From the NCBI GenBank assembly GCA_030753015.1, contig JASMDC010000006.1, positions 80,563 to 144,562 of the forward strand: a DNA stretch of 64,000 bases, read 5' to 3'. The position numbers and the translations under genes were made by a program. How positions within the stretch are numbered: position 1 is the first letter of the stretch; each line of letters opens with the position of its first letter. Under the pieces are notes generated by a model. The model searched no databases, had not been told where the DNA came from, and saw only the letters and a program-made list of their open reading frames with translations. The stretch comes from Candidatus Undinarchaeales archaeon (lineage in GTDB: Archaea; SpSt-1190; JASMDC01). Below are positions 8,855-47,090 of the stretch, piece by piece.

Positions 8855-8876
8855 TTAGTTTCCACCTCGTCATAAC

Positions 8877-9506: not shown

Positions 9507-10919
9507 CTAGGATGACACCTCGGCTTCCGCCTTCTTGGGAAGGTACTTCTCGATGAACTCCTCATCGATGCGCTTGAGCTCCGACTTCGGCAAGTCCGAG
9601 AGGAGTTCCCACGAGATGCGAAGGGTGTCCTCGATAGTCCTGTGCTCGTGCCTCCCCTGGCCGATGAACCGCTCCTCGAAGTTGTCTGCGAAGTTGAGGT
9701 ATTTCGCGTCGATGTCGCTGAGGGCGGCCTCGCCGATGACGGCCACGAGCTCGCGCATGTCCCTGCCGCGAGCGTAAGCCGAGTAGAGTTGGTTTGACAC
9801 CCCGTGGTGGTCGGCCCGCGTCTTGCCCTCGCCGATGCCCTTGGTCATGAGCCTTGAGAGGCACGGGAGGATGTCGATGGGCGGATACACACCACGTCGT
9901 ACCATGTCCCTGCTGAGGACGATCTGACCCTCCGTGATGTAGCCCGTGAGGTCGGGGATGGGATGGGTGATGTCATCCTCCGGCATGGAGAGGATAGGGA
10001 GCTGGGTGATGGATCCCTTCTTGCCGTAGATCTTGCCGGCGCGCTCGTAGAGGCTGGACAGGTCTGTGTACATGTAGCCGGGGTACCCGCGGCGTCCTGG
10101 GACCTCGTTGCGCGCAGCCGAGATCTCGCGCAGAGCCTCGCAGTAGTTCGTCATGTCGGTGAGGATGACGAGCACGTGCATCTCAAGCTCGAAGGCGAGG
10201 TACTCCGCGGCGGTTAGTGCCATGCGCGGCGTTGCGATGCGCTCGATCGCCGGATGGTCCGCCAGGTTCATGAACACCACCGAGCGCTCGATGGCTCCTG
10301 TCTTGCGGAAGTCGGTGATGAAGAAGTTCATCTCCTCGAAGGTGATCCCCATAGCGCCGAACACCACCGCGAAGTCACCCGCCCCCTCCTCCAGCACTCG
10401 CGCCTGGCGGGCGATCTGGGCGGCGAGCTCGTTGTGCGGCAGCCCTGATCCGCTGAAGATGGGAAGCTTCTGGCCCCGCACGAGCGTGTTCATGAGGTCG
10501 ATGGACGACACTCCAGTCTCGATGAAGTCGGCGGGGTACTCCCGAGCCGTGGGATTGATAGGGTTTCCGATGATGTCCATCATCTTCTCGGGCACGATGG
10601 CCGGACCCTTGTCGATGGGCTTTCCCAGGCCGCTGAACACGCGCCCAAGGATGTCGGGGGACACGGCCAGCTCAACGGACTTCCCGGTGAACTTGAGCTT
10701 GGTATCCCCGATGTTGATACCGGAGGTTCCTTCGAACACCTGGACCACGGCCGTGTTCCCGGACACCTCGAGCACCTGGCCGAGCCTCTGTTCGCCGCCA
10801 GAGAGCTCGATCTTGACGAGCTCGTTGTAGGCAACGTCACGGACGTTCTCGACGATGACGAGGGGACCGGAGATCTCCGTCACACCCATGTACTCCCGAA
10901 GCTTGCTGATGTCACTCAC
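9507..10919 (-). CDS. atpB: A/V-type ATP synthase subunit B
   Basis: [57 protein letters not shown] start at 10919 after GGAGGTGA. Confidence 0.97.
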
Positions 10920-12696: not shown

Positions 12697-12698
12697 TG

Positions 12699-13043
12699 CT
12701 ATCCACCTTCTTCATCCTTTGCCAGGATGTCAACACCCACCGCCCTCTTGATAAGCACCCGCACCTCATCCATTGCCGTCCCCTGGCTTCCATGCTTGTC
12801 GGGCAGGGGGAGGACCACGGGAAGGAACTGCTCCTCCGTGATGGCTTGGATGGTCTTGATGAGCTTGGGGGCAAAGAACTCTGTGATTAGGATGAGCGCC
12901 ACGTCATCGTCGCGGCGCAGTCTGAAGAGATGCTGCTCTGCCTCCTCCACGGTGTCGGCCTCGTACGCTCGGGTGACGCCTGCGAACCTGAAACCGATGA
13001 CGGTATCACGGTCCCCTATGACAGCGATCTCGTAGCTAGACAT
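12699..13043 (-). CDS. atpF: A/V-type ATP synthase subunit F
   Basis: [17 protein letters not shown]...IKRAVGVDI. Confidence 0.94.
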
Positions 13044-14226
13044 AGACATCCCTCACGACACCGTGCAGCTTCTCCTTGTCCATGTTCTCGAACTTTGCGT
13101 GGAAGATCATTTTGAGTATGACAGCTTCTCGCTCCATCATGAGCGCGTATGTGATGATGGGATCGGGTGAGAGGGTCCGAGAGAGCGTGCGCTCCCTGGC
13201 CCCTTGCAGGAGGGCATTGTCGCACGCCCGTTCGAAGGCGGAGACTGAGAGGTCACCCTTGCACGTTGAGGCGGCCTTGCTCGCTAGCTTGACGATATCC
13301 GGCTCGGAAAAGGCAGCACTTATCGCATCAGGGTGCTCCCCGAGCAGGTCGTGGAATCGCTCCACATGGATCGTGCCGCTCGGCATGAAGGCCTCCTTCG
13401 GGAGATCCTCCTGATGGTGGAGGTGTGCACGGACAAGTGTCTTGAGGTTCTGCACGTCCACAAGGCTCTTGAGGATGTTCCGGGCCAGGTCCGCTCGCCT
13501 CCCCATGCTCTCGGACAGCTTCGTGTTAAGGAGGGCGAAGAATGCCGTGTCCAAGGCATACGCCACATGCTGGGGATCGATCTCCACCTCTTTATCGCTC
13601 CCCCCGTGGCGGATGATGTACGGAGCGTATGTGGATAGGGGCCCCTCCTGGTCTGTCCCCGTTTTCTTGGCTGTAGTGATCGCCCCGAACGTCCTTTCCA
13701 GGCACGCCGCGTACCCTGTATCGCCCACCAACCCGGGAAGCGCGTCAAGCTCTTCGGCCTTGGCCATTGTCGCCAGCGACTCCTCAGAAAGGGTGCCTGC
13801 ATAGGAGAGCGTCCGCTCGATATGGTCGGGTGGACGCCCCTGCAGCTTGCCGCGCACGACGGCGTGAAGATTGTGTAGGTCGTGGCGCGCCTGGAGGACG
13901 TCGACGAGCACGCGGTCCTCCTCCGGGAGGAGGGAACGCACCAAGACGTACGTGCGCAGGAGCGTCTTGTCAGCAGCGAGGTCGAAGTCGCGCCACTCAC
14001 GCACTTGCCTCAGGTCCTGGCTATAGCTCGAGTCGCCAAGGGCCTTGAGCACCTCAAGGTGCGTTGACGTCTCTACCAACTCATCGATCCTGGCCTTCCG
14101 GAGGAGCCGGTTCTCAAGGGCTCGCACCCTCCCGAGGCCGTACGCGTACTTAGAATCCTCCATACCGTTGAGGCCCAGGTAGGTGAGGACGGCGCCGGAC
14201 CCGAAGATGAAGGATTCAAGGAGCAT
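13036..14226 (-). CDS. atpC: A/V-type ATP synthase subunit C
   Basis: YAYGLGRVRALENRLL, DLHNL...RGK, DVQNLKTLVR; positioned between E and F. Confidence 0.88.
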   Translation of the reverse strand: MLLESFIFGSGAVLTYLGLNGMEDSKYAYGLGRVRALENRLLRKARIDELVETSTHLEVLKALGDSSYSQDLRQVREWRDFDLAADKTLLRTYVLVRSLLPEEDRVLVDVLQARHDLHNLHAVVRGKLQGRPPDHIERTLSYAGTLSEESLATMAKAEELDALPGLVGDTGYAACLERTFGAITTAKKTGTDQEGPLSTYAPYIIRHGGSDKEVEIDPQHVAYALDTAFFALLNTKLSESMGRRADLARNILKSLVDVQNLKTLVRAHLHHQEDLPKEAFMPSGTIHVERFHDLLGEHPDAISAAFSEPDIVKLASKAASTCKGDLSVSAFERACDNALLQGARERTLSRTLSPDPIITYALMMEREAVILKMIFHAKFENMDKEKLHGVVRDVYV

Positions 14227-14236
14227 TCACGATCAC

Positions 14237-14839
14237 CTACGAGAACAGCTCTTTTGCGATCTTTGACCTCAACCCGTCCATGCGAAGCTCGAGCAACGCA
14301 TCAAAGGACGCATTCACCTCGATCTCACCGCACCGGAGCACGATCCCGCCGATGATGGCTCGGCCCTCACGCGAGAGGGTGAGGTGCTTCGTCCCAAGGT
14401 CGTTCTCGACCTGCTTCAGATCATTATCTGAGAGCACGCCGTTCTTCCTGTCCCGTTCAGGGAGGATGACCTCGATATCGGGGCCCGGGAGGTCTTCTGC
14501 TCCCTTCCTAATCCACGAGAGCAGGAGACCTTTGTACTCCTTCCCCCTCGTGAACGCCTCGAGGTTCTCATGAACCCGCTCAATGGTCTCGAGGATGAGC
14601 TTATCCTTGGCCCTGAGCAGGTTGCGCTTGGGCTCCATCGTGCCCACGGCGAGGATCTTCTGTTGCTCGATCCTGGCCTCGCGCTCGGCCTCCCGCATGA
14701 TCCCCTCCCTTATATGCTCACCATCCGCCCTGGCACGGGCCAGGATATCGTCTGCCCTCGCCCGCGCCTGGGAGAGCTCCCGCTCAACATCCTTCTCCGC
14801 GTCAGCGAGGATCTTGCTACCTATCTCCTCTAAACCCAC
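14237..14839 (-). CDS. atpE: A/V-type ATP synthase subunit E
   Basis: GTG start after AGGTGAT; MGLEEIGSKILADA coiled coil; IIGGIVL...VNASFD. Confidence 0.9.
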   Translation of the reverse strand: MGLEEIGSKILADAEKDVERELSQARARADDILARARADGEHIREGIMREAEREARIEQQKILAVGTMEPKRNLLRAKDKLILETIERVHENLEAFTRGKEYKGLLLSWIRKGAEDLPGPDIEVILPERDRKNGVLSDNDLKQVENDLGTKHLTLSREGRAIIGGIVLRCGEIEVNASFDALLELRMDGLRSKIAKELFS

Positions 14840-18122: not shown

Positions 18123-18333
18123 CGGGATCACGTGATGCACCTCCACTTCACGCACAACGGCTATACTATAATGGGTGTTCCGCCAGGATGAGATGAACAT
18201 ATAGATCGCTACTTGGGCGAGATTCCCCCTCATCCTGTCCGTGCTACTTTGTGCTATGGCAACACACAGGCCGCCCCCACCTACATGGTTTTAAGGCGAG
18301 GGTTGTTTGAAAGGATGCTCGCGGGGCACCATC

Positions 18334-19617
18334 ATGGCACACAAGAATGACCTGTTCACGAATGTCATCGAACAGATTGACAAGGCAAACAGAATCCTGA
18401 AACTGGAAGCCGGTATCGTAGAGATCCTCAAACAGCCCCAGCGAGAGCTCATCGTATCCCTCCCGATCAAGATGGACGATGGCCGTGTACGGGTGTTCGA
18501 GGGATTCCGTGTCCAGCATAACTACGCTCGTGGTCCCACAAAAGGTGGAATCCGTTACCACTCCGAGTTGAGCCTGGACGATGTCCGAGCGCTGGCCGCC
18601 TGGATGACATGGAAGTGCGCCGTGGTCAACATCCCCTACGGTGGCGCCATGGGCGGGGTGATCTGCGATCCTAGTACCATGACATCTAGGGAGCTCGAGC
18701 GCCTCACGCGGCGGTACGCCTATATGATCCTTCCCCTCATCGGTCCAGAGAAGGACATCCCCGCTCCCGACGTATCGACGAACGCTCAGACCATGGCATG
18801 GTTCATGGACACGTTCTCCATGTTCCAGGGCTACTCCGTACCGGGAGTCGTGACTGGCAAACCGGTTTCTTTGGGCGGCTCGAAGGGGCGAACCGAGTCC
18901 ACGGGCAACGGACTGATGTTCGTCGCCCGAGAGGCACTCAAGCATAAGGGGATATCCATGGATAGCGCATCCTGTGCCGTCCAGGGATTCGGGAACGTGG
19001 GCAGCCACGCCGCTCTGTTCATGCACCAGAAGGGATCGAAGGTAGTGGCAATCTCCGACCTGTCGGGCGGTATCTTCAATCCCGATGGCATCGACCTACC
19101 TGCAGCCTTCGACTACGTTAAGACTGGCAAGAGTGGTCTCATCAAAGGCTTCGAGAAGCTCCAGAATGGATGCACTTTTGTGAAAGGAGCGGCCGCTGCG
19201 ACCAAGCAGCTCCTTGAATTGCCTGTGGACGTACTCATCCCCGCGGCTTTGGAACACCAAATCACTGGTGAGAATGCGGACCGTATCAAGGCCAAGGTCA
19301 TCGTAGAGGGTGCCGATGGCCCGACCACTTCCGAGGCGGATGAGATCCTGTTCAAGAAGGGCGTGTTCGTGGTGCCCGATATACTAGCCAACGCTGGCGG
19401 GGTGACAGTGTCGTATTTCGAGTGGGTGCAAGACCTTCAGGCCCACTTCTGGAGCGAGCATGAGGTCAGGGTGAAGCTGCGAGATGTCATGGTTGCGGCC
19501 TTTGAGAACGTCCTTGAACTCTCGAAGAAGCATGATGTCGATATGCGCACCGCAGCCTCCTGTATCGCCCTCAAACGTGTCGCTGACGCCATCACCATGC
19601 GCGGTATATTCCCTTGA
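18334..19617 (+). CDS. Glu/Leu/Phe/Val dehydrogenase family protein (GDH-like; catalytic GGAKGG Lys replaced by Met)
   Basis: RGPTKGGIRY, MTWKCA, GGAMGG, DIPAPDV, VQGFGNVG, EGADGPT, PDILANAGGV. ATG 18334 lies downstream of TTTTAA. Confidence 0.92.
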   Translation: MAHKNDLFTNVIEQIDKANRILKLEAGIVEILKQPQRELIVSLPIKMDDGRVRVFEGFRVQHNYARGPTKGGIRYHSELSLDDVRALAAWMTWKCAVVNIPYGGAMGGVICDPSTMTSRELERLTRRYAYMILPLIGPEKDIPAPDVSTNAQTMAWFMDTFSMFQGYSVPGVVTGKPVSLGGSKGRTESTGNGLMFVAREALKHKGISMDSASCAVQGFGNVGSHAALFMHQKGSKVVAISDLSGGIFNPDGIDLPAAFDYVKTGKSGLIKGFEKLQNGCTFVKGAAAATKQLLELPVDVLIPAALEHQITGENADRIKAKVIVEGADGPTTSEADEILFKKGVFVVPDILANAGGVTVSYFEWVQDLQAHFWSEHEVRVKLRDVMVAAFENVLELSKKHDVDMRTAASCIALKRVADAITMRGIFP

Positions 19618-19980: not shown

Positions 19981-21318
<1,338 letters not shown>

Positions 21319-21465: not shown

Positions 21466-21951
21466 ATGAATCCCGATGAAACCGATATTGTCAAACAAGT
21501 CGAAAAGATCGTCGAGGAGCACGGCCCATACACGAAGTCCCTCATACCCATCCTGCAGGACATACAGGAGGAATACGGGTACGTGCCCGGCGTGGCGATC
21601 GCGACCATCGCCGGGCGGCTCGGCATCTCCGGGGACGTGATCTACGGTGTGACCACGTTCTACTCTCAGTTCAGGTTCAACAGCCCCGGCAGGCACCATA
21701 TCAAGGCATGCCTGGGCACTGCCTGCCACGTGCGGCGGGGATCCATGCTCCTTGAGGCAATCGAGCGTCGCCTGGGGATATCCCACGGTGAGACAACGCC
21801 GGACGGCCTCTTCAGCCTTGAGAAGGTGGCGTGCCTGGGGTGCTGCGCCCTGGCCCCGGTGATCGTGGTCGACGATCAGGTGTTCGGTACCTGCACTCCC
21901 GCGAAGGTTGATGGCATCCTGTCCCGCTACGAGGGCGAGGAGAGTGCGTGA
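21466..21951 (+). CDS. nuoE: NuoE/HydC-like [2Fe-2S] subunit (BfuC-type)
   Basis: LIPILQDIQEEYGY, GVTTFYSQF, CLGTACH, ACLGCCALAP. Confidence 0.92.
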   Translation: MNPDETDIVKQVEKIVEEHGPYTKSLIPILQDIQEEYGYVPGVAIATIAGRLGISGDVIYGVTTFYSQFRFNSPGRHHIKACLGTACHVRRGSMLLEAIERRLGISHGETTPDGLFSLEKVACLGCCALAPVIVVDDQVFGTCTPAKVDGILSRYEGEESA

Positions 21952-21952
21952 C

Positions 21953-23869
21953 ATGGGCTTCGATGCCGTCCGAAAGAGGGCGAAGGCCTCGTGGGACGGG
22001 CTCGTCAGCAGCTCCATTCCCGTGATATACTTCGGCGCGGCCTCCTGCGGGAGGGCGGCAGGAGTGATGGCCGTCAAGGAGGCCGCGGTCAGGTATCTTG
22101 ACCGTACGGACACCGATGCCAGGCTCGTCGACGTGGGCTGCATCGGCCCCTGCTGCTACGAGCCGCTTGTGTACGTCCAGAAGCCGGGGAGGCCGCCCAT
22201 CTGCTACTCCAACATGGACCCTGATGGGATAGAGACTCTCCTGGAGGGCTACCTTGCGAGTGACGATCCGATGGGGGATATGGCACTGGGCGTGCTGGGG
22301 GACGAGGCCGTGGACGGCATCCCGCCGCTCTTTGAACACCCCATGCTGGCACCCCAGGTGCGGCTCGTGCTGCGCAACTGCGGTATCATAGATCCCACCG
22401 AGATCGACCACAGTATCGCCCATGGTGGGTACGAGGGAATACGAAAGGCCCTGTCCATGACGCCCGAGGAGGTCATCGAGGAAGTGAAGGCCTCCGGGCT
22501 CCGCGGGAGGGGCGGCGCAGGATTCTCCACGGGTACCAAGTGGGCGTTCTGCAGGGACGCCGAGGGTGAGCCTAAGTACTTGATATGCAACGCGGACGAG
22601 GGCGATCCGGGGGCGTTCATGAACCGCTCGCTACTGGAGGGCGACCCCCACACCGTGCTGGAGGGGATGCTCATCGCAGGCTATGCAATCGGGTGCCGTC
22701 ACGGTTACGTCTACATCAGGGCTGAGTACCCCCTCGCAATCGAGCGCCTGATCCACGCCATCGAGCAGATGAGGGCGCACGGCCTGCTCGGCGAGAACAT
22801 CATGGGCTCGGACTTCTGCTTCGACATCGAGATCAAGAAGGGGGCCGGCGCGTTTGTGTGCGGCGAGGAGACCGCGCTCATGGCTTCCATCGAGGGGAAG
22901 AGGGGCATGCCTAGGACAAGACCCCCGTTCCCGGCGACCTCGGGTGTGTGGGGTAAGCCCACGAACATCAACAACGTGGAGACCCTCGGGAGCCTCGCGA
23001 ACATCATCCGGATGGGAGCAGAGGAGTACGCAATGCAGGGATCCGACACGGCCAGGGGGACGAAGACCTTCTCCCTGGTGGGCAAGGTGAAGAGGACGGG
23101 GCTGATCGAGGTCCCCCTCGGCACCCCGGTGAAGGAGATCCTCTTCGGGATCGGTGGTGGCATCGAAAACGACCGGCAGTTCAAGGCGGTGCAGACCGGT
23201 GGGCCCTCTGGGGGCTGCATCCCGCGGTCGAAGCTGGATCTCCCCGTAGACTACGAGTCCCTCCAGGAGGCAGGCGCCATCATGGGCTCGGGTGGGATGA
23301 TCGTCATGGACGATGAGACCTGCATGGTGGACGTGGCCCATTACTTCCTATCCTTCACCCAAGCCGAGTCCTGCGGCAAGTGCGCACCGTGCCGCATCGG
23401 CACGAAGCGGATGCTGGACATCCTGGGAAAGATCAAGGACGGGAACGGAGAGATGGGGGACCTTGATGAGCTCGAATCCCTCTCCTGGACCATCCAGAAC
23501 GGCTCCCTCTGCGCGCTGGGGCAGACCGCCCCCAATCCCGTCCTGACCACCCTGCGCTATTTCAGGGACGAGTTCGAGGAGCACATACGCGAGGGGCGCT
23601 GCCGTGCCCGCGTGTGTAAGCCGCTCATCCGCTACGAGATAGTGGAAGAGCGCTGCATCGGGTGCGGGGCCTGCCAGAAGCGGTGCCCTGTAGATGCTAT
23701 CTTGGAGACCAGCCGACCGGTCACGAAGGGCAAGGGCAAGACAAGGGCCATCGATCCCAAGCTCTGCGTCCGCTGCGGCATCTGCCTTTCCGTGTGCCCG
23801 CCGAGCGCGGACGCCGTCGAGAAGTTCTCGCCCGCCACCGCAGAGGTGGCCGGGGGTGGCGGCCGATGA
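21953..23869 (+). CDS. nuoF: NuoF/HydB-like FMN/NAD-binding subunit with N-terminal thioredoxin-like Fe-S domain and C-terminal 2x[4Fe-4S] domain (BfuB-type)
   Basis: GLRGRGGAGF, CNADEGDPGAFM, GAGAFVCGEETAL, GGPSGG, ESCGKCAPCR, CIGCGAC..CP and CVRCGIC..CP. Confidence 0.93.
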   Translation: MGFDAVRKRAKASWDGLVSSSIPVIYFGAASCGRAAGVMAVKEAAVRYLDRTDTDARLVDVGCIGPCCYEPLVYVQKPGRPPICYSNMDPDGIETLLEGYLASDDPMGDMALGVLGDEAVDGIPPLFEHPMLAPQVRLVLRNCGIIDPTEIDHSIAHGGYEGIRKALSMTPEEVIEEVKASGLRGRGGAGFSTGTKWAFCRDAEGEPKYLICNADEGDPGAFMNRSLLEGDPHTVLEGMLIAGYAIGCRHGYVYIRAEYPLAIERLIHAIEQMRAHGLLGENIMGSDFCFDIEIKKGAGAFVCGEETALMASIEGKRGMPRTRPPFPATSGVWGKPTNINNVETLGSLANIIRMGAEEYAMQGSDTARGTKTFSLVGKVKRTGLIEVPLGTPVKEILFGIGGGIENDRQFKAVQTGGPSGGCIPRSKLDLPVDYESLQEAGAIMGSGGMIVMDDETCMVDVAHYFLSFTQAESCGKCAPCRIGTKRMLDILGKIKDGNGEMGDLDELESLSWTIQNGSLCALGQTAPNPVLTTLRYFRDEFEEHIREGRCRARVCKPLIRYEIVEERCIGCGACQKRCPVDAILETSRPVTKGKGKTRAIDPKLCVRCGICLSVCPPSADAVEKFSPATAEVAGGGGR

Positions 23870-26163
23870 GGATCACCATCGACGGAGCGGAGGTGCCCTT
23901 TACGGAGGGCCAGACCATCCTCGAGGCAGCCCGCGATGGCGGCATCTACATCCCTACTTTGTGCGCCCACGAGGGGCTCCCGCCCCTCGGTGCGTGCCGC
24001 CTCTGCGTGGTGAAGGTGGAGGGCATGCGGGGGTTCCCGCCCGCGTGCAGTATCCCTGCCGCAGACGGGATGGTAGTTCATAGTGAAGCTGAGGAGGTCA
24101 TGCGGCTCCGCCGGAACGTCCTGGCGCTCATCCTGATCGAGCACCCCCACGCCTGCCTCGTGTGCGGCGAACGCGAGGAGTGCGAGAAGCTTCGGGGCGA
24201 TCCGGAGAAGGCGGGGAGAGTCACTGGTTGCTCAACCTGCCCCAAGCGGCCAACCTGTGAGATACTCGAGGTCGCCGATTACCTGGGGATGGCCGACACC
24301 GGCATCCCCATGGTGTACAAGGGACTACCGGTGGAGCGTGACGACCCGTTCCTCGACAGGGACTACAACCTGTGCATCCTGTGCGGCCGGTGCGTTCGCA
24401 TGTGCCAGGATGTGCAGGGCGTGGGCGCCATCGCCTTCACCCACCGCGGGAATTCAACGAAGGTCGGAACCTTGTTCGGGCGTCCCCACCTCCTCGGGCC
24501 CTGCCGCTTCTGCGGCGCCTGCATCGACGTATGTCCCACCGGCGCCCTGTCGGCACGGGGGAGCAAATGGCACGGCGAACCCGACGCGACCACCGCGTCG
24601 ACCTGCGCCTTCTGCTCCCTTGGATGCCCAGTGGTGCTCGAGGTGAAGTGGGACAGGGTTATGGCGGCCGTACCTGGCAAGCAACGGGGCAGCGGACACG
24701 CGTGCGCATGCGTCTACGGCAGGTTCTGCATCCCCGCTGTGGTCAACGCCTCCAACCGGCTGCGCTACCCACGGATCAGAAAGGACGGCACACTCGCACC
24801 AGTATCCTGGGACGAGGCGTTCCACTACGTCGCGGATGCTTTTGAGGGCGTCTCACCAGCGGAGACGGGCTTCCTGATATCCCCTCATGTCACGAGCGAA
24901 TCCGCCTGGCTGATCCGGAGGCTCGCCCGGGATGTGGTGGGCACCAGCAACATCGATGTACTGTCTTCCTTCGGACGGGCCGTGATGCGCTTTGCTGCCG
25001 ACGTTGGCGATGGAGCATCGGCCTGGGCTGGCCTGGACGACGTGGAACGCGCCGACTGGCTGCTCCTTGTGAAGGATGACGTTGTCTACAGTCATCCGGC
25101 CCTTGCAGCAGCGGTCAACTGCGCCCGCGAGCGTGGTGCCACGGTCATACTCGTGGACGACGGTGAGAACGACCTGGCGACGTCGGCGGACCTTAAGGTG
25201 CTCATCGAGCCTGGCTCGTTGAGGGCCGTGCTCGCAGCCGTTGCGAAGGGGCTCCTCGTGGAGCATGGGGACGCTGTGATCGAGGGCATCGAGGCCCTCA
25301 GCACATCCCTGGAAGGATCTACCCACGAGGGGGCCGCGAAGCTTGCCGGCATATCCGTGGAATGCCTGGGTGACATTACCAAGACCCTGCACTCATCTCG
25401 AACGGGCGTCATCGTCGTCGGTCCGCGCATCCTGGACGACCCGGAGCCGGACCAGGTGCTCGCCGCTATCCGCGACCTGCTGGTGCTTCGCGGTGTTGAG
25501 CGGGGCTTCATGCCGCTGGTGGAAGAGGGCAACCTCAGGGGAGCGTACGAGGCTGGCGGCTTCCTGGACACGAGTGAGGGAGACAAGGACGTGATGGACG
25601 CACTGCGCCGCGGCGATGTGAAGGTCCTCGTCGCCGGCGAGGGCTCGATCCCTCCCGACGACATCCCCGAGGGGACGTTCCTTGTGATATCGGAGCCACA
25701 TCCCTCTGTGCTGGACGACCGGGCCGATGTTATCTTCCCCTCGGCCGTCTTCACCGAGGAGGACGGGCACTTCACCTCGCTCGACGGCCGAGAACGGAAG
25801 CTTGCAAAGGCTGCAGATCCACCTGGCATGGCCATGCCCGATTGGATGATCACCGCGGGGCTGGCGCGGGTCATGGGAGCCTGCGGATTCGAGCATGGCT
25901 CCAGTGAGGAGGTCCACCGGGAGATGGCGAAGGCCATCTCCCTGTTCCCGGGGAAGGAACGACCTTCCTTCCCATCCCGTAGGGAGCTGCTCCCCATCGC
26001 GGATACGTGCTCGCTCCATCTGGGCGAGCACGCGAGGGCGACGATGCGCTACCGGGGCACGGCCCTGCACGAGCTCGTGGGGGACCTGCGCATCTACCTC
26101 GAGGCCAGGGGGCGTATCCCAATGAAGGACTCAGAGGGATCCGAGAAGGAGGGAACACGATGA
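23866..26163 (+). CDS. NuoG/FdhF-like multi-Fe-S subunit with degenerate molybdopterin domain (BfuA-type)
   Basis: ATG 23866 overlaps the previous stop (ATGA). Contains IPTLC..GACRLC..AC, HxxxCxxC, CILCGRCVRMC, CRFCGACIDVCP and CAFCSLGC..C; no Mo-ligand Cys/Sec. Confidence 0.9.
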   Translation: MRITIDGAEVPFTEGQTILEAARDGGIYIPTLCAHEGLPPLGACRLCVVKVEGMRGFPPACSIPAADGMVVHSEAEEVMRLRRNVLALILIEHPHACLVCGEREECEKLRGDPEKAGRVTGCSTCPKRPTCEILEVADYLGMADTGIPMVYKGLPVERDDPFLDRDYNLCILCGRCVRMCQDVQGVGAIAFTHRGNSTKVGTLFGRPHLLGPCRFCGACIDVCPTGALSARGSKWHGEPDATTASTCAFCSLGCPVVLEVKWDRVMAAVPGKQRGSGHACACVYGRFCIPAVVNASNRLRYPRIRKDGTLAPVSWDEAFHYVADAFEGVSPAETGFLISPHVTSESAWLIRRLARDVVGTSNIDVLSSFGRAVMRFAADVGDGASAWAGLDDVERADWLLLVKDDVVYSHPALAAAVNCARERGATVILVDDGENDLATSADLKVLIEPGSLRAVLAAVAKGLLVEHGDAVIEGIEALSTSLEGSTHEGAAKLAGISVECLGDITKTLHSSRTGVIVVGPRILDDPEPDQVLAAIRDLLVLRGVERGFMPLVEEGNLRGAYEAGGFLDTSEGDKDVMDALRRGDVKVLVAGEGSIPPDDIPEGTFLVISEPHPSVLDDRADVIFPSAVFTEEDGHFTSLDGRERKLAKAADPPGMAMPDWMITAGLARVMGACGFEHGSSEEVHREMAKAISLFPGKERPSFPSRRELLPIADTCSLHLGEHARATMRYRGTALHELVGDLRIYLEARGRIPMKDSEGSEKEGTR

Positions 26164-27020
26164 GCTACCGTATAGTCCACAAGGAGGAAGTGGTTCCCAA
26201 TGTCCACAAGCTGGTGATTGAGGACCCGCGCATCGCCCGGACCGCACAGCCCGGACAGTTCGTGTTGCTCATGCCCACCGAGGAGGGTGAACGCACACCC
26301 ATCACCCTCTCCGACTGGGACGTGGAAAGGGGCACTATAACGCTCTACGTGCTGGAATTTGGCATCACATCCATGAAGCTTGCGAATATGACGGAGGGCG
26401 ACACCGTGTTCAGCCTCGCCGGCCCACTCGGCCTACCAACACGGGTGGAGCAATTCGGCACGGTGCTCCTGGGGGGCGGGTGCTACGGCATCGGCGGCAT
26501 ACTCCCTGTCGCCAGGGCCATGAAGGAGGCCGGGAACCACGTAGTGGTGATAATAGAGGCCCGTAGCAACTTCCTGCTCTATAACAAGGAGGAGCTAGGC
26601 TCCGTTGCGGACGAGCTCCATGTCACGACAACGGACGGTTCCGAGGGGACGAAGGGTCACAACTGGGACCTGATAGGAGAGCTCCTCGACGAGGGCCGGA
26701 CCTTCGACCGGGCCTACTTCGTGGGCTGCACCCGCATGCTGATGAGATGCGCTGAGGCAACCCGGCCAGCCGGGATCCCCACCGGTGTAGCGCTCAATGC
26801 CATCATGGTGGACGGTACCGGGATGTGCGGCTGCTGTCGGGTCACCGTGGGCGGGAAGACGAGGTTCGTGTGTGTGGACGGTCCTGAAATGGATGGACAC
26901 GAGGTGGATTGGGAGGAGCTGTTCAACCGCAAGTGCTCCTACCGGGGAGACGAGGCGCGCGCCTACCAGACCCACACGTGTCGAGTGACCGGTGCTCGTG
27001 TGAAGGGGAGTGATTCTTGA
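26160..27020 (+). CDS. nfnA: NfnA/SudB (FAD/NAD-binding, [2Fe-2S]) subunit
   Basis: AQPGQFV..GERTPIT, GPLG, DGTGMCGCCRV..CVDGP; ATGA overlap with the upstream gene. Confidence 0.9.
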   Translation: MSYRIVHKEEVVPNVHKLVIEDPRIARTAQPGQFVLLMPTEEGERTPITLSDWDVERGTITLYVLEFGITSMKLANMTEGDTVFSLAGPLGLPTRVEQFGTVLLGGGCYGIGGILPVARAMKEAGNHVVVIIEARSNFLLYNKEELGSVADELHVTTTDGSEGTKGHNWDLIGELLDEGRTFDRAYFVGCTRMLMRCAEATRPAGIPTGVALNAIMVDGTGMCGCCRVTVGGKTRFVCVDGPEMDGHEVDWEELFNRKCSYRGDEARAYQTHTCRVTGARVKGSDS

Positions 27021-28450
27021 TGGTGAAGCCGGGAGAGAGGGACCGTGTGAAGATGCCGGAGCAACTGCCCGAGGTGCGTGCCCGTAACTTCGAGGAGGTG
27101 CCCTTGGGCCTCACCGCAGAGCTGGCCGTCGCGGAGGCGGAGCGTTGCCTCAACTGCAAGAAACCGTTCTGCGTGGATGGATGCCCGGTGAGCGTCAAGA
27201 TCCCCGAGTTCATCTCCCTGATAAGTGAGGGCAGGTTCGCCGAGGCCGCACGGAAGGTGAAGGAGACCAACGCGCTCCCCGCTGTGTGCGGACGGGTGTG
27301 CCCCCAGGAGGTCCAGTGCGAAGCAAGGTGCGTGCTCGGCAAGAAGTACGAGCCCGTGGCCATCGGCTACTTGGAGCGCTTTGTCGCCGACCACGAGCGC
27401 GAGAATGATCTGATCGAACTGGCGGAGCGCGCCCCCTCCACTGGGAAGAAGGTAGCGGTCATCGGCGCAGGCCCCTCCGGGCTCACTGTGGCAGGGGATC
27501 TCATCAAGCTCGGGCACGACGTGGTGATATTCGAGGCGCTCCACAAGCCCGGCGGCGTCCTCACCTACGGCATCCCCGAGTTCCGCCTCCCCATGCGCGT
27601 CATCGAGGCCGAGGTCGCCAACCTGCTGGAGCAGGGCGTGAGTCTGGAGATGGACTCGGTCATCGGCAAGGTGCGGACCGTGCGCGAGCTGATGGAGGAG
27701 GATGGATTCGACACCGTGTTCATTGGTGTGGGCGCAGGCCTGCCGCGCTTCATGGGCGTGCCCGGTGAGAACCTCAACGGTATCTACTCGTCCAATGAGT
27801 ACCTCACGCGCTCGAACCTCATGAACGCCTTCCGCTTCCCCGAGTACGACACACCCGTGGAGCGGGCGAGGAAGGCAGTGGTCATCGGCGGCGGCAATGT
27901 TGCCATGGACTCGGTGCGCACGGCACTACGCCTGGGAGCAAAGGATGCCATCATCGCCTATCGCCGCGCCCGGGAGCAGCTGCCGGCCCGGACGGAGGAG
28001 ATCCACCACGCCGAGCAGGAGGGCGTGCGGTTCCACTTCCTGACGGCCCCCATCCGCTTCATCGGCGATGACCGCGGATTCGTGAAGGCAATGGAGTGCA
28101 TCTGCATGGAGCTGGGCGAGCCCGACGCCAGCGGCAGGAGACGGCCGGTTCCTATAGAGGGCTCCAACTTCATCATGGAGGCGGACCTTGTGGTAATCGC
28201 CGTCGGTACGAACTCCAATCCTCTGCTCACCTCCACCATGCCGGAGCTGGAGCTGAACAAATGGGGCAACATAGTCACCAACGAGGACGGCGCCACCAAC
28301 ATCGAAGGTGTGTACGCCGGTGGCGACATCGTCACGGGCAGCGCCACGGTGATCGAGGCCATGGGTGCGGGGCGCCGCGCCGCGAGGGCGATGCACGAGT
28401 ACATGACTGAAGGACGGTGGAAGGTGGAGAGGAAAGAGAGCGAGAAATGA
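27020..28450 (+). CDS. nfnB: NfnB/SudA (GltD-like, NADP-binding FAD/Fe-S subunit)
   Basis: RCLNCKKPFCVDGCP, CGRVCPQEVQCE, GAGPSG, YGIPEFRLP, GGGNVAMD, YRR, GGDIVTG.ATVI.AMG; TGATG coupling. Confidence 0.93.
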   Translation: MVKPGERDRVKMPEQLPEVRARNFEEVPLGLTAELAVAEAERCLNCKKPFCVDGCPVSVKIPEFISLISEGRFAEAARKVKETNALPAVCGRVCPQEVQCEARCVLGKKYEPVAIGYLERFVADHERENDLIELAERAPSTGKKVAVIGAGPSGLTVAGDLIKLGHDVVIFEALHKPGGVLTYGIPEFRLPMRVIEAEVANLLEQGVSLEMDSVIGKVRTVRELMEEDGFDTVFIGVGAGLPRFMGVPGENLNGIYSSNEYLTRSNLMNAFRFPEYDTPVERARKAVVIGGGNVAMDSVRTALRLGAKDAIIAYRRAREQLPARTEEIHHAEQEGVRFHFLTAPIRFIGDDRGFVKAMECICMELGEPDASGRRRPVPIEGSNFIMEADLVVIAVGTNSNPLLTSTMPELELNKWGNIVTNEDGATNIEGVYAGGDIVTGSATVIEAMGAGRRAARAMHEYMTEGRWKVERKESEK

Positions 28451-28532: not shown

Positions 28533-30836
28533 ATGGCCGCCCGGAAGAACTATCTGCTCAAACGCATCCTCAATGACCGGAAGTTCATCGAGTACGCCCT
28601 CCAGTGGGAAGGCCTGGGTCTCTCGTATGTGCGCTACAAGCAGATGGGGCCGGCAGTGCACCCCGATGAGAAGAAGATCCTGCTCGAGAACATCGCACGG
28701 CTTGTGATCACCAGTGACGAGGCTCACGTGTCCTACATCGCGAACCTCTTCGATTATGATGACCTCATCAAGATCGAGGAACGCATCTTCGGAAAGGGCA
28801 AGATCGGCGGGAAGAGTACGGGGATGCTGCTCGCTTTCAACGCCCTGCACAGGCACAGGGAGCATCTGGGATTCGAGGTCAGGATCCCAGACTCATGGTA
28901 CTTGGGCAGCAACATGGACACCGAGTTCCTGACCTTGAACGGCTTGCAACGGTTCGAGAATGCCAAGTGGCAGGAAAGCATCCAGTTGGATAACTACAAT
29001 GAGTTCATGGAGCTGTTACCCGAGACCCGTCTCCCTCAGAAGATCCTCAAGAAACTACGCTCCCTGCTCCGAGAGACCCACGGTACACCCCTGATCCTCC
29101 GCTCCTCGTCGCTCCTCGAGGACAGCCATGGAACCCCCTTTCCTGGGATGTATGAAAGCTACTTCATCCCGAACTGTTATTCTTTGACAGAGAACCTGAG
29201 GATGACGGTCGACGCTGTCAAGAACATCTACTCATCGATCTTCAAACCTGACTGCTTCAACTACCGGAAGAAGAAAGGCCTATTGCAGGAATATGAGGCC
29301 ATGGCCATACTGATACAGAAGGTCGTGGGGGGAAGGTACACGAGCCCCGAGGGCAAGGAGTATTTCTCCCCGCTCTTCTCCGGGGTTGGATTCTCGCAGA
29401 ACTGCTATCCCTGGTCGAAGGAGGTACGTCAAGGCGATGGTGTCGTGCGGCTTGCCCTGGGTCTCGGCACTGCTGTGGTCTCCCTTCCAGAGGAAGCGGA
29501 GGAGGCCGGTGTGTTCGTATGCGATCTCTCAACGTTCAGGACCCCCGCCCCCGAGGAACAGCTCAAGTCCTCCCAGAGGCTCGTCCATGCGGTGGACCTC
29601 CAAGAGACGGATATCAAAAAGACCATCAAACACCTCCCCATAAAGGACGTCGTGGCGTACAATGGTCTGTCGAGCCTTGGAGAGGGCCAGAACGGGGTCG
29701 AGGCGATCATCAGTATTCAGGAGGACTCGGGCAGTCTCGCACGGGCCTCAGGATACAACCTTCAAAAGGGATTCCCGTTCATCACCTTCCACTCCATCGA
29801 GAAGAAGTGGGGGCCGAGACTGAGAGAGGTCGTGAAGATAATCGAGTTCGCCTATGCAAAGAACGAGATGCACACGTTCCTCGACGAGTCGAAATGGACG
29901 CTCGTCGGGACGATCATCGGCGACTGCCCAGGGGACATCCGGGAGAGGCTCAAGGCGGATGACCTGTCCGATCCATTCGGGAGCATGATCGAAGCCGCTC
30001 AATTATCCTCCGAGATGAAGGAGAACCTGCACTACGTGGTCGAGGCCAAGAGGCTATTGGAGAACCTTTCCGATTATCCATCATTCAAATCAGCCCTAGG
30101 ATCGCTGTCCAATAAGGATCTGAAGGAGAGGCTCGGCCAGATAATAAGAAGGCACGCCATCGACATCGAATTCTCGGTCGTGGGCGACATACTCTACATA
30201 TTACAATGCCGCCCCCTGAGCTTATACGAAGAGACAGGACTGGACGAGAGCATGCACGCCATCCCACCCGAGAGGAGGTTCATCGACGTGAAGGCGGTGT
30301 GTCCCACGGCACAACTGGACATCACACGTGTGATCTATGTGGATGATGAGAAGTACATCCACATGTCACAACAACAAAAATACGCGGTCCGGGACAAGCT
30401 GAGCGAACTGAACAACTCGATGGGCGAGTCCATTGACCAGAAGGGAACCTCACACGAGGGGGATTTCATGTTCCTCCTTCCTGGGAGGGTGGGATCCTCC
30501 CATCCGGAGCTTGGTATCCCCGTGAAGTACAAAGATATTAACAACGCCCGGATACTGGTGGAGTATCCGCTCGGGCTGCAAAAGCCGGAGTTCTCCTACG
30601 GCTCGCATTTCTATCTGAGGTTGGTAGGTGACGGGATCTACACCTTTGGAATCCAGGAAGGTGACCTGTTCCGAAGGGAGCTGATCGAGATGAATGCCGT
30701 GCAGAGGTTCTTTGACGGGGCCATTATCGTCTCGAGACTCCCCCTCGGTGTGTACATGTCCGGAGTGGAGAGAAGGGTCGTATGTGAGATGATGGAGGGC
30801 GGAGAGTACGGACCCGAAGTGCTGCTCGAGATGTGA
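28533..30836 (+). CDS. PEP/pyruvate-binding (PPDK_N ATP-grasp) domain protein of unknown function
   Basis: GKIGGKS, RSSSLLED..FPGMYES, MAILIQKVVG, ALGLGT, DIEF..LQCRP, PGRVGSS..LGIPV, SYGSHF. TATAAA at 28501 suggests its own promoter. Confidence 0.85.
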   Translation: MAARKNYLLKRILNDRKFIEYALQWEGLGLSYVRYKQMGPAVHPDEKKILLENIARLVITSDEAHVSYIANLFDYDDLIKIEERIFGKGKIGGKSTGMLLAFNALHRHREHLGFEVRIPDSWYLGSNMDTEFLTLNGLQRFENAKWQESIQLDNYNEFMELLPETRLPQKILKKLRSLLRETHGTPLILRSSSLLEDSHGTPFPGMYESYFIPNCYSLTENLRMTVDAVKNIYSSIFKPDCFNYRKKKGLLQEYEAMAILIQKVVGGRYTSPEGKEYFSPLFSGVGFSQNCYPWSKEVRQGDGVVRLALGLGTAVVSLPEEAEEAGVFVCDLSTFRTPAPEEQLKSSQRLVHAVDLQETDIKKTIKHLPIKDVVAYNGLSSLGEGQNGVEAIISIQEDSGSLARASGYNLQKGFPFITFHSIEKKWGPRLREVVKIIEFAYAKNEMHTFLDESKWTLVGTIIGDCPGDIRERLKADDLSDPFGSMIEAAQLSSEMKENLHYVVEAKRLLENLSDYPSFKSALGSLSNKDLKERLGQIIRRHAIDIEFSVVGDILYILQCRPLSLYEETGLDESMHAIPPERRFIDVKAVCPTAQLDITRVIYVDDEKYIHMSQQQKYAVRDKLSELNNSMGESIDQKGTSHEGDFMFLLPGRVGSSHPELGIPVKYKDINNARILVEYPLGLQKPEFSYGSHFYLRLVGDGIYTFGIQEGDLFRRELIEMNAVQRFFDGAIIVSRLPLGVYMSGVERRVVCEMMEGGEYGPEVLLEM

Positions 30837-41122: not shown

Positions 41123-42163
41123 ATGTTCAAGCACCGGACGCCGAGCCTCAAAGTGCGCAAGGCCATGTCCGTGGCCGCCGTGGGCCTCGGTAAGGACTAC
41201 ACCTCCTCCAAGGGCGCTGGCGCGACAAAGGAGCTTGTTGCCAAGGTCTCGCGGATGACTGGGAAGGCCCATGTCCGCCCTGTGTCGAGCGGTAACGGTG
41301 CCATCTTCGCGGCGCTCTTCGTTGCCCCGGGCCCCGTGATGCTGCCCGATACCGGTGGCTGGATCGCGTTCCGAACCCATCCCAAGGTGCTGGGGCTGGC
41401 CACCCACGCACTCGAGACCGACGCGGGTTACATCGACCTCGACCTCCTGAAAAAGCACCTGGACATGAAGAACCCAAAGACCCTCCTCTATAGCGCGTCC
41501 TCAGGGTTCCTTGCGGAGAACGACGGTCGCCACATCGCCGACCTCTGCCGTGACAAGGGGGTCCGGACCATCGAGGACATCACAGGCGTGCTCGGGAGAA
41601 AGGACGCTGGACGGCATGCCGATGTTGTTGTTTGTTCCACCGGTCCCGCCACCGTGGCCAACCTCCTCTCCGGAGGGTTCATCGCCGCTGACAGCGAGGA
41701 GCTCCTGGAGACGGCAAAGTTCGCTCTCTCCCTGGCCGCGCCCGATCCAGTGACCATCGCGGGGATGGTCGCCGCTCTGGACGAGGCGCCTCGAATCTAT
41801 CAGGATCTGGTGGAGACGGCCGACCAGCTCAAGAGCGATCTTGAGGGGTACAGCCAACTCGTGCATCCGCGGCGACGAGGTATCGGTGTCGGCCTTGATC
41901 TGAGCGAGGGTGTGCTCTCCCCCGAGTGGGTGTACAAGCGCTCTCTGGAGCTCGGCCTCCTCACAGAACTGCGCTCACCGCTCATGCTCAAGGGCCCGCG
42001 GTACGATCGACTCGACGTGCCGAGCGTCACCATCGAGCTTAAAAAGGTTGACATCGCGTACTACGAACGGGAGGCGCTGATCGGCCGCCTTGTCGAGGCC
42101 GTCGATGCCCTCCTCAGACCACAGGCCTCCGTAGCTCAGCTGGTCAGAGCGGCTGATTCGTAA
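41123..42163 (+). CDS. Fold-type-I PLP-transferase-like protein of unknown function
   Basis: SSGNGAI, PDTGGW, IEDITG (pyridine-N Asp), STG...SGGFI; TTATAA at 41091. The 3' end overlaps tRNA-Thr. Confidence 0.65.
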   Translation: MFKHRTPSLKVRKAMSVAAVGLGKDYTSSKGAGATKELVAKVSRMTGKAHVRPVSSGNGAIFAALFVAPGPVMLPDTGGWIAFRTHPKVLGLATHALETDAGYIDLDLLKKHLDMKNPKTLLYSASSGFLAENDGRHIADLCRDKGVRTIEDITGVLGRKDAGRHADVVVCSTGPATVANLLSGGFIAADSEELLETAKFALSLAAPDPVTIAGMVAALDEAPRIYQDLVETADQLKSDLEGYSQLVHPRRRGIGVGLDLSEGVLSPEWVYKRSLELGLLTELRSPLMLKGPRYDRLDVPSVTIELKKVDIAYYEREALIGRLVEAVDALLRPQASVAQLVRAADS

Positions 42164-42198
42164 TCAGCAGGTCGCGCGTTCGAATCGCGTCGGGGGCT
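42125..42198 (+). tRNA. tRNA-Thr (anticodon CGT), intron-less, CCA not encoded
   Basis: Acceptor GCCTCCG/CGGGGGC, D arm GCTC..GAGC, anticodon arm GCTGA-TTCGTAA-TCAGC, T arm GCGCG-TTCGAAT-CGCGT, discriminator T followed by a T-tract. Confidence 0.96.
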
Positions 42199-45947: not shown

Positions 45948-47090
45948 GTGGAACCCAGGCGCATCGGGTTCGTGATGAATCCCATTGCCGGTATGGGTGG
46001 ACGCGTGGCGCTCAAGGGCACCGATGGTGTGGTGGACGAAGCCCGGGCTCGGGGTGCTGAGCCCGTGGCGCCCGGCAAGGCCCGGGAGACGATGGACGCC
46101 TTAGTGCAGCTCGCCGAGAACAAGCCCCTGGCCATCGAGTGGGTGACCAGTGCAGGGGCGATGGGCGCTGACGCTCTCTCGGTCCTTCCAGATGCACGGA
46201 TCGAGGTTATCCACGAGCATGCTGACGCCACCTCCGCCGTGGACACGACGGCGGCCGTCCGGGCTTTCCTGGAGCGCGGGATCGAGCTCGTCGTGTTCTG
46301 CGGTGGCGATGGCACGGCCCGTGACATAGTATCCGTGACAGGGACATCGGTCCCAGTGCTCGGGATCCCCTCGGGCGTGAAGATGTACTCGGGTGTGTTC
46401 GGTATACATCCTGCAAGCTGTGCACAGGTCATCTGGGATTTTCTCCACGGCCAGGTGGGGATGGCTGATGCAGAGGTACTGGACCTGGACGAGGACGCGT
46501 TCCGGAACGACCGGGTCGAGGTCCGGCTCCATGCTGCTGCCAGGACGCTCGCAGAGCCCACTTACATCCAGTCAGGGAAGATGGGGTTCGAACGCGTTGA
46601 TGAGGATGAACTCAAGGACGAGATGGCGATGACGGTCGTGTTCGAGATGAAACGGAATCCGGACACCCTCTACATACTCGGCTCGGGCTCAACCGTGGAG
46701 GCAGTGGGCAGACGCCTCGGGCTCGGGCTCACGGTATTGGGCATCGATGTCGTCCTGGACCGGAAGATCATTGCTAAGGACGCGGATGAGAAGACCCTCC
46801 TGAACATCCTCGAGGAGCATGCTGACCGGCCCCGCTGCCTTGTGCTCACACCTATCGGCGCCCAGGGATTCATCCTTGGCAGGGGGAACCAGCAGCTCTC
46901 ACCACAGGTGGTCCATACGATAGGCATGGACAGTATATTGATACTAGCAACGGCCTCGAAGCTGGCGAAGACGCCCGTCCTCCGCGTGGACACCGGCGAT
47001 CCCGGTCTGGACCGGGAGTTCACCAAGAAGGGCTATCTTCGGGTGACGGTCGGGTTCAACACTGTCCGGATGGTGAAGGTGGAGGGCTAG
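45948..47090 (+). CDS. ATP-NAD kinase / AcoX-like family protein
   Basis: NPIAGMGG.VALKGTDG, GGDGTARD, GIPSGVKMYS, QGFILGRGNQQ, VDTGD. Confidence 0.88.
   Translation: MEPRRIGFVMNPIAGMGGRVALKGTDGVVDEARARGAEPVAPGKARETMDALVQLAENKPLAIEWVTSAGAMGADALSVLPDARIEVIHEHADATSAVDTTAAVRAFLERGIELVVFCGGDGTARDIVSVTGTSVPVLGIPSGVKMYSGVFGIHPASCAQVIWDFLHGQVGMADAEVLDLDEDAFRNDRVEVRLHAAARTLAEPTYIQSGKMGFERVDEDELKDEMAMTVVFEMKRNPDTLYILGSGSTVEAVGRRLGLGLTVLGIDVVLDRKIIAKDADEKTLLNILEEHADRPRCLVLTPIGAQGFILGRGNQQLSPQVVHTIGMDSILILATASKLAKTPVLRVDTGDPGLDREFTKKGYLRVTVGFNTVRMVKVEG

Follow-up and report, generated by a model that had tools for sequence, protein, structure and literature searches.

An archaeal operon joining a Bfu-type core to a separate NfnA–NfnB pair with an adapted NfnA subunit

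Results

Two kinds of redox module in one tightly coupled operon

A 64,000-nt stretch of the genome of a Candidatus Undinarchaeales archaeon (SpSt-1190; contig JASMDC010000006.1, positions 80,563 to 144,562; hereafter the window) holds, on its forward strand, a five-gene operon in the order nuoE-like, nuoF-like, nuoG-like, nfnA and nfnB. The first three encode a trio of the Bfu type (subunits E, F and G, resembling BfuC, BfuB and BfuA) and the last two the subunits of an NfnAB transhydrogenase (Table 1). The operon spans positions 21466–28450 and is densely packed: E and F lie one base apart (TGAcATG), F overlaps G and G overlaps nfnA through ATGA, and nfnA meets nfnB in TGATG, with open reading frames (ORFs), coordinates and junctions all as they had been described in the initial annotation of this DNA. 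That annotation's central proposal, that two types of module are combined in one tightly coupled operon, agrees with what we find. The operon is separated by 147 nt from a glutamate dehydrogenase (GDH) gene upstream and by 82 nt from the next gene downstream, and AT-rich boxes within both gaps look like archaeal promoters.

Table 1. Genes and sites at the locus, with window coordinates and the evidence for each assignment
Feature	Position	Strand	Evidence or remark
Second, archaeal-type glutamate dehydrogenase (GDH1)	18307..19617	+	NF040817 529 bits, under its cut-off of 750
NADP-specific glutamate dehydrogenase (GDH2), directly upstream of the operon	19981..21318	+	NF006929 736 bits, cut-off 536
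nuoE-like / BfuC subunit (E), 161 residues, thioredoxin-like [2Fe-2S]	21466..21951	+	PF01257 160 bits; Cys82, 87, 123, 127
nuoF-like / BfuB subunit (F), 638 residues	21953..23869	+	Pfam; full-length alignment to solved BfuB chains; Cys positions
nuoG-like / BfuA subunit (G), 765 residues	23866..26163	+	Pfam; alignments to FdsA 6tg9 and 7t2r_A; invariant Cys
Family-specific G insertion, residues 101-131, duplicating CxxCx5C (C106, C122, C125, C131)	24166..24258	+	invariant in 40/40
Equivalent of the formate dehydrogenase catalytic Cys/Sec-His in G; reads SSFGRAVMRFAA	24964..24999	+	alignments to FdsA 6tg9 and relatives
nfnA, 286 residues	26160..27020	+	5jca_S 273 bits, 4ylf_A 230 bits; NF004862 333 bits; PF00175 unmatched
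Codon of NfnA Cys108, Gly-rich NAD loop GGGVG to GGCYG	26481..26483	+	
Codon of NfnA Cys190, 'VGP' to 'VGC'	26727..26729	+	
nfnB, 476 residues	27020..28450	+	4ylf_B 586 bits, full length; TIGR01316 598 bits
Protein with PPDK_N (ATP-grasp) domain	28533..30836	+	PF01326 122 bits; relatives adjoin nfnAB in L019, L021, L087, L157 and L189
tRNA	42125..42198		
NAD kinase, 17 kb downstream	45948..47090	+	PF01513/PF20143

Subunits E and F have the make-up of a bifurcating core. The single [2Fe-2S] cluster of a BfuC is represented in E by PF01257 and four cysteines. Subunit F, with Complex1_51K, SLBB and NADH_4Fe-4S domains and two Fer4 domains, has the FMN/NADH site, the B1 cluster and the extra clusters B2–B5 that, according to the accessible parts of PMC9304861, are absent from non-bifurcating homologues. 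Its motifs NADEGDPGAFM, FKAVQTGGPSGG, ETCMVD (C457) and EEHIREGRCRARVC (H544, C550, C555), its N-terminal Cys-rich iron–sulfur domain and its C-terminal 2x[4Fe-4S] domain with two CxxCxxCxxxCP motifs bear out the first description of this protein; the ligand patterns comprise C474/477/480/520 and C457/H544/C550/C555 in addition to these two domains. In full-length alignments F scores highest with the B subunits of Stn/NfnABC enzymes (9bov_B 726, 8oh5_B 719 and 9n5u_B 706 bits), ahead of 7t2r_B (687 bits) and the FeFe HydB chains. In eight related loci (L002, L038, L045, L057, L075, L078, L086 and L089) a whole GltD-like module stands where F otherwise has its C-terminal ferredoxin-like domain, giving an F::GltD fusion of about 1030 residues; all of these but L002 thereby hold two NADPH-type modules.

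Gene order and gene fusions link G to NfnA

The arrangement recurs far beyond this archaeon. A G-family alignment was used to scan genomes, each species being represented once, and we retained the best 80 of the 591 relatives obtained. Sixty-two of the 80 loci extend at least 2.4 kb beyond G, and nfnA and nfnB lie directly downstream on the same strand in 56 of these, three of them as G::NfnA fusions; this synteny survey had been proposed in the initial annotation. The loci with room but without adjacent nfnAB are L019, L030, L055, L056, L059 and L065, four of which have NfnB elsewhere in the genome. Among the 18 shorter loci, six hold both genes and one holds nfnA, the remaining 11 stopping at G or holding another gene. 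The 67 linked loci represent at least 17 named phyla, Asgard and Thermoplasmatota archaea included, together with groups that have no formal name, TA06 and WOR-3 among them; 10 of the records are archaeal and 49 bacterial. Across 59 loci the G-to-nfnA distance has a median of −4 nt, with 39 overlaps and 12 further loci within 30 nt, and this is the tightest junction of the operon (medians of −1 nt from F to G and 13 nt from nfnA to nfnB). The linkage holds in one direction only: a reverse survey found 6 of the best 80 of 599 NfnB relatives downstream of E/F/G genes, some contigs, such as L170, being too short to judge.

The closeness of G and NfnA extends to outright fusion. In three Hydrogenedentota loci (L075, L078 and L079) a single protein joins G, from residue 1 to about 400, to NfnA. 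When residues 330–846 of the L078 protein were compared with a collection of 5.8 billion proteins (E<=0.001), 3888 proteins scored, and in all 120 of the 120 clusters listed PF10418 is accompanied by G-type domains, with identities as low as 48%; the source names include Hydrogenedentota, Planctomycetota and Dehalococcoidia.

NfnA is the subunit that has changed

We compared the two Nfn subunits with the NfnAB motif definitions available in section 8 of PMC6405883. NfnB shows every one of them: RCx2Cx4Cx3CPV, GRVCPQExQCx3C, the FAD site, the NADPH-phosphate Arg pair and the flavin-N5 Arg. Its cluster motifs R42–V57 and G91–C104, the NADPH-site residues Y314 R315 R316 and the flavin-N5 R189 are all invariant in 24 sequences, and at the thresholds used no column separates 51 linked NfnB from 83 stand-alone sequences, mostly bacterial. 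The idea that linked NfnB forms a special subfamily was discarded; the 62-row clade behind it had an archaeal stand-alone outgroup only, and the broader set of 83 sequences shows no separation.

NfnA keeps its flavin strand ERxPxT (E44 R45 P47 T49) and its [2Fe-2S] motif DGTGMCGxCRx10CV (D218 C223 C226 C238). The FNR-type (ferredoxin–NADP reductase) NAD(H)-binding domain expected of NfnA appears to have diverged, with PF00175 unmatched and the substitutions G108C and P190C. The usual cofactor motifs initially ascribed to both subunits are thus all present in NfnB and, in NfnA, at the flavin and [2Fe-2S] sites, and the NAD domain departs from them.

Comparing 66 linked with 76 stand-alone NfnA sequences, we found four discriminating columns. 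Position 108 is Cys in 94% of linked and Gly in 93% (71/76) of stand-alone sequences, and position 190 is Cys in 94% of the former and Pro in 96% (73/76) of the latter; linked NfnA further has Trp at position 53 (95%, versus mostly S, Y, T or F) and Tyr at position 141 (86%, versus Ile in 76%). C108 and C190 both fall within the NAD-binding domain, and the FNR-type fold would place them in the NAD pocket. The pair occurs in 55 of 55 NfnA proteins that follow a G without catalytic residues (dead G; see below), in all three fusions and in four of seven operons of the formate dehydrogenase (FDH) type; it is absent from the one operon with a short G and present in one of 76 stand-alone sequences (L170, whose contig ends 857 nt upstream). 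In a tree of 148 NfnA rows, made by a quick search, a 60-row clade with a Shimodaira–Hasegawa-like approximate likelihood ratio test (SH-aLRT) value of 97 unites the 58 sequences from dead-G operons and fusions with L170 and with L099, an unlinked copy whose genome has the trio elsewhere. Similarly, PF00175 (NAD_binding_1, E<=0.01) matches none of 40 linked NfnA proteins, the window's included, versus 39 of 40 stand-alone ones, and FAD_binding_6 matches 4 of 40 versus 19 of 40. As judged by these comparisons, NfnA, and not NfnB, is the adapted subunit.

Two loci have a second Nfn copy: L087 (1-4126, minus strand) carries, on the opposite strand, the rearranged order nfnA-nfnB-E-F, and in L017 (90-2456) a fused NfnA::NfnB lies directly upstream of E. 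The NfnA of both second copies bears the stand-alone-type signature.

The large subunit carries a dead formate dehydrogenase domain

Subunit G combines Fer2_4, NADH-G_4Fe-4S_3, Fer4_Nqo3, Molybdop_Fe4S4 and Molybdopterin domains, and its Cys pattern assigns clusters A1–A5. The A1 and A2 that a BfuA has at the least are represented by C33/44/47/61 and H93/C97/C100/C106. Among solved structures, the closest to it in sequence are FdsA (6tg9, 247 bits) and NiFe-HydABCSL's HydA subunit (7t2r_A, 203 bits). The catalytic Cys-His of FdsA ('ARVCHS') aligns with 'SSFGRA' of G, that is with Gly-Arg, and Pfam finds neither a Molydop_binding cap (PF01568) nor a GltD-like part in the protein, so that both marks of an FDH catalytic subunit, the Cys/Sec-His pair (Sec, selenocysteine) and the cap, are missing. 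No Cys beyond C282 is invariant in 40 relatives, and 9 of the 43 invariant columns of 40 orthologues lie after it.

The initial annotation had described the system as having no substrate-activating site, which is true of the G in the window (Gly-Arg, no cap) and does not extend to the architecture as a whole: 13 of 80 related large subunits keep CARL[C/U]H in the alignment, and eight of the 13 are followed by nfnA-nfnB. Three of these FDH-type proteins have an in-frame TGA, confirmed in L068 and L030 (CARL-U-HAPT) and deduced in L059 from a break of the ORF there, and L032 has full Molybdopterin and Molydop_binding domains (PF01568 112 bits). In a tree of 71 G rows (quick search; 3 Sec-split and 7 truncated rows left out) one branch, with an SH-aLRT value of 100, splits 10 FDH-type rows from 61 others; by this tree the dead form is therefore a single lineage, one transition apart from the live form. 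Since relatives with an intact Cys/Sec FDH also carry nfnAB, the lack of a catalytic site is a derived state of one lineage and not general to the architecture.

The family-specific insertion of G (Table 1) is found in the window and in 74 of 79 related loci that cover the region, the five without it being FDH-type relatives; three FDH-type relatives, L068, L074 and L086, combine the lack of the insertion with a canonical NfnA. Insertion and NfnA C108/C190 pair co-occur in 55 of 56 operons or genomes scored, a figure that comprises two independent contrasts only and is not amenable to statistics. The duplicated CxxCx5C follows the His-ligated cluster motif, leaving three surplus invariant cysteines. 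That the insertion is the docking site of NfnAB is unsupported as stated, as it is absent from three nfnAB-linked FDH-type loci and present in two unlinked trios. An archaeal variant (L122, G055:C1, minus strand 8479-14560) has E, F and a BfuA of 267 residues with N-terminal iron–sulfur domains only, followed by a 700-nt gap without a long ORF and then by nfnA and nfnB; its NfnA bears the stand-alone signature.

Genomic setting and origin of the operon

In this genome (3.85 Mb, 98.9% complete) E, F, G and NfnA each occur once, alongside two unrelated GltD-like paralogues; the five-gene enzyme is the only Nfn-type enzyme of this archaeon. A partner encoded elsewhere, such as the hydrogenase that the initial annotation named as an alternative, was sought, and neither a NiFe nor an FeFe hydrogenase was found in this genome. 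The NuoD family (PF00346) has no match in it either, and F has domains absent from NuoF, which sets the trio apart from the N-module of complex I (NuoEFG). Mcr was not found in the genome, whose inventory does include Rnf and the archaeal Wood–Ljungdahl pathway, and both GDH genes lie directly upstream of the operon. The operon's contig also bears cdh, A-type ATPase, fwd, ftr and mtd genes. The fwd/ftr/mtd cluster (L097, 0.5–18 kb upstream of the window) includes an HdrA-MvhD fusion of 813 residues and a 493-residue GltD-like protein that carries a Fer4 domain, both between formylmethanofuran dehydrogenase subunits; these two proteins may provide CO2 reduction with a flavin-based entry for electrons.

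A G-like gene is present in one of the 17 genomes examined for the phylum, that of this archaeon alone, and the five-gene operon is not ancestral here. The best hits of all five proteins are two loci in Thermoplasmatota metagenome-assembled genomes (L017 and L018, 54–78% identity), and the NfnA, NfnB and G trees agree with each other. The G+C content is 0.63–0.65 in the operon versus 0.55–0.59 in its flanks. The interval between GDH1 and PMT_2 is variable: about 11 kb in the window, where it holds the NADP-GDH, the five genes and the PPDK_N gene, and about 2.7 kb in a sister species (L126, G001; 99% complete), where it holds a GDH paralogue and a GltD-like gene. An NADP-type GDH, a large PPDK_N protein (some with DUF5752), or both, recurrently adjoin nfnAB whether or not a Bfu trio is present (L021, L087, L157, L159, L178, L189 and L019, from Thermoplasmatota, Bacteroidota, Acidobacteriota and Syntrophomonadaceae records). 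Marine and seawater metagenomes from several studies contain near-identical DNA, and one RNA-library run contains 12 small contigs, all at least 99% identical, that fall on GDH2, on F, around the nfnA/B junction and on the PPDK_N gene.

Discussion

Using surveys of gene order, fusions and subunit-specific signatures, our work here suggests how a complete NfnAB pair could be built into a Bfu-type enzyme. The conserved order, the fusions and the specialised NfnA together favour a single complex, and we assign a probability of about 0.58 to the reading of the five genes as coding for a single NADH/NADPH/ferredoxin oxidoreductase whose NfnA passes electrons to the iron–sulfur chain of the BfuA-like subunit and not to free NAD. 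The NAD pocket of NfnA is remodelled with its flavin and [2Fe-2S] sites kept, and therefore the NfnA flavin most likely exchanges electrons with the G chain. From these comparisons we infer the formation of the complex, its electron route, its direction and its stoichiometry. The initial annotation spoke of a split or hybrid transhydrogenase; the hybrid stands, with one complex favoured on comparative grounds, and the enzyme is not simply a split Stn, because NfnA, and not NfnB, is the subunit that changed.

In the mechanism that we propose, the five proteins would form one soluble iron–sulfur flavoprotein complex that interconverts NADH, NADPH and ferredoxin. E and F would supply the Bfu-type core, G would serve as a BfuA-like wire with its dead FDH domain as scaffold, and the complete NfnA–NfnB pair would act as the NADP(H) module, with NfnA as the adaptor docked on G. 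NADP(H) would react at the NfnB flavin, which may still bifurcate; the high-potential branch would then run through the [2Fe-2S] cluster and the NfnA flavin into the G chain, which would take the place of free NAD. NAD(H) would be handled at the FMN of F, and ferredoxin at one or both of two places, the C-terminal clusters of F and the NfnB [4Fe-4S] pair. Such an enzyme would probably turn NADPH from glutamate oxidation into NADH and reduced ferredoxin or, in reverse, make NADPH, and its surroundings suggest that it could supply GDH and the Wood–Ljungdahl pathway.

Because R189, the Arg tied to bifurcation at the NfnB flavin, is kept, two bifurcation sites appear possible. We also consider, as a doubtful extension, that the two sites act in series and that a new metal or iron–sulfur site at the G–NfnA interface, formed by the two clade-specific NfnA cysteines together with the G insertion and its duplicated CxxCx5C, replaces NAD as partner of the NfnA flavin. 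If this were true, the enzyme would be a transhydrogenase with an NADH:ferredoxin:NADPH stoichiometry unlike those of both Nfn and Stn.

Several observations weigh against the single-complex reading, and some of them bear on the possibility of two separate, co-transcribed enzymes, a canonical NfnAB and a BfuABC-like NADH:ferredoxin module acting alone or with a partner encoded elsewhere. Adjacent nfnAB is missing in 6 of 62 loci, just 6 of the nearest 80 NfnB relatives have E/F/G genes alongside, the other 74 being stand-alone, and NfnB is canonical: it looks like the stand-alone enzymes and keeps the bifurcation Arg, so that NfnAB could work alone, as the NfnAB of T. maritima and P. furiosus does. 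The failure of PF00175 to match is no proof of lost NAD binding; the NfnA signature marks one clade, probably one event, which means that its counts are not independent; and in one genome (G061) a dead, insertion-bearing G is accompanied solely by NfnA of the stand-alone type. The RNA-library contigs are a weak hint of expression, being contigs only, with DNA carry-over possible. Feeding high-potential electrons into a bifurcating core is, moreover, energetically awkward, and no unique stoichiometry can be derived; therefore rival readings stay alive. We nevertheless consider two separate enzymes unlikely. G::NfnA fusions are frequent, the G/nfnA junction is the tightest of the operon, and the FNR-type NAD-domain signature is lost in linked NfnA; a BfuABC trio with a dead BfuA would have no third substrate, and this genome offers no hydrogenase or complex I partner.

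Alternatively, the system could be an Stn-like enzyme in pieces, in which NfnB docks on G through its [4Fe-4S] pair like the fused GltD-like domain of StnC/NfnABC, its flavin only gives or takes mid-potential electrons, and NfnA is an accessory or regulatory flavoprotein. The likeness of F to the Stn/NfnABC B subunits speaks for this, as does the way in which, in Stn, the clusters of the GltD-like domain connect with the BfuA chain (accessible text of PMC10482914); so do the FDH-type loci L068, L074 and L086, with their canonical NfnA and uninserted G. Against it, NfnA is the subunit that changed, and NfnB appears unadapted, keeping the flavin-N5 Arg that, according to the same source, makes bifurcation possible, StnC being reported as no longer bifurcating. 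In the fusions found, moreover, G is joined to NfnA and not to NfnB. We regard this arrangement as improbable. More improbable still, to the point of being barely credible, is that the molybdopterin-like domain of G is alive, binding another cofactor or substrate, and that NfnAB supplies NADPH-derived electrons to that reaction. The domain is kept at about 500 residues in most lineages and has a conserved C-terminal (Y/F)RG motif, and sister operons do hold a live formate dehydrogenase; but Cys/Sec-His and cap are gone, the columns after C282 contribute 9 of 43 invariant positions, the fusion forms trim the domain by about 200 residues, and complex I uses this fold as a scaffold without cofactor, a G-like subunit being found in the NiFe-Bfu enzymes as well.

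The single-complex reading, if true, would define a major unassigned node of anaerobic redox balancing across at least 17 named phyla. Nfn and Stn are regarded as two ways of solving one problem, of which the majority of species reportedly have either one or the other (PMC10482914); a Bfu core with a whole NfnAB would join both. The NfnA result turns this into a testable question, namely whether the partner of the NfnA flavin is NAD or an iron–sulfur wire, and the progression from live FDH to dead scaffold to truncated fusion provides a natural series in which to study the combination of bifurcating modules. For this archaeon, the enzyme would be the only candidate link between NADPH, as produced or consumed by the adjacent glutamate dehydrogenases, and the ferredoxin-dependent enzymes of the Wood–Ljungdahl pathway.

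Comparison with known systems

We found no published description of a Bfu trio with a separate NfnAB or of a NuoG::NfnA fusion, although Supplementary Table 1 of PMC9304861 may list such operons. The Bfu types recognised in that classification are FeFe, Nfn (fused), Fdh, F420, Wor, FdhFeFe, Bam, Codh, Por, Mbh, NiFe, Nuo and Rub, and none of those in its section 5 has separate NfnA and NfnB, in line with the initial suggestion that the architecture matches no characterised type. Section 6 of the Nfn review gives four patterns, none linked or fused to NuoG. Within their accessible parts, the architecture is likewise undescribed in PMC9304861, PMC12018979, PMC11406978, PMC10482914, PMC6405883, PMC5736913, PMC5911951, PMC7382037, 10.1101/765248, 10.1101/717884 and 10.1101/2021.07.06.451242.

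Among the enzymes that resemble parts of the system, the NiFe-HydABCSL of A. mobile (Type 3 Bfu, 7t2r) has a HydA of 692 residues (7t2r_A) that resembles G over query residues 3-110 and 131-656, and its catalytic module, on extra subunits, is a NiFe hydrogenase, where the window's extra subunits are NfnAB. The Fdh-Bfu or FdhA-HydBC formate dehydrogenases form the sister lineage of G, some also with nfnAB, and have the Cys/Sec-His pair and the cap domain, of which the window's G has neither. P. furiosus NfnII (5vj7) offers a partial precedent for the altered NfnA, its NfnA-like subunit (5vj7_B) being changed in the same Gly-rich loop; according to section 8 of PMC6405883 it has no NAD-dependent activity, a changed NADH domain and an unidentified high-potential acceptor. 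It is far more distant (175 bits) and keeps 'VGP', and we found no reported link of NfnII to a Bfu trio.

The closest comparisons are with the two established transhydrogenases. The Stn/NfnABC enzymes (S. ovata 8oh5, C. saccharolyticus 9bov, T. sibiricus 9n5u) share with the window the HydBC-type core, to whose B subunits F is nearest by bits, the NuoG/Fdh-like domain, a GltD-type NADPH module and the same three substrates, here predicted from the genes. In contrast to their fused GltD-like domain in the large subunit, their lack of NfnA and their non-bifurcating flavin, the window has a G without a GltD-like part, a separate and canonical NfnB with its N5 Arg kept, and a specialised NfnA from a gene of its own, which places it outside Nfn-Bfu / Stn (Type 1) as defined. 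Similarly, full-length alignments match the window's NfnA and NfnB to NfnAB / NfnSL (T. maritima 4ylf, P. furiosus NfnI 5jca), with all cofactor motifs represented; but canonical NfnAB is a stand-alone dimer with its NAD site on NfnA, whereas in the window the pair is encoded behind a Bfu trio and NfnA has altered NAD-domain motifs. The five-gene system would work like both Stn/NfnABC and NfnAB, yet is a member of neither as these are defined.

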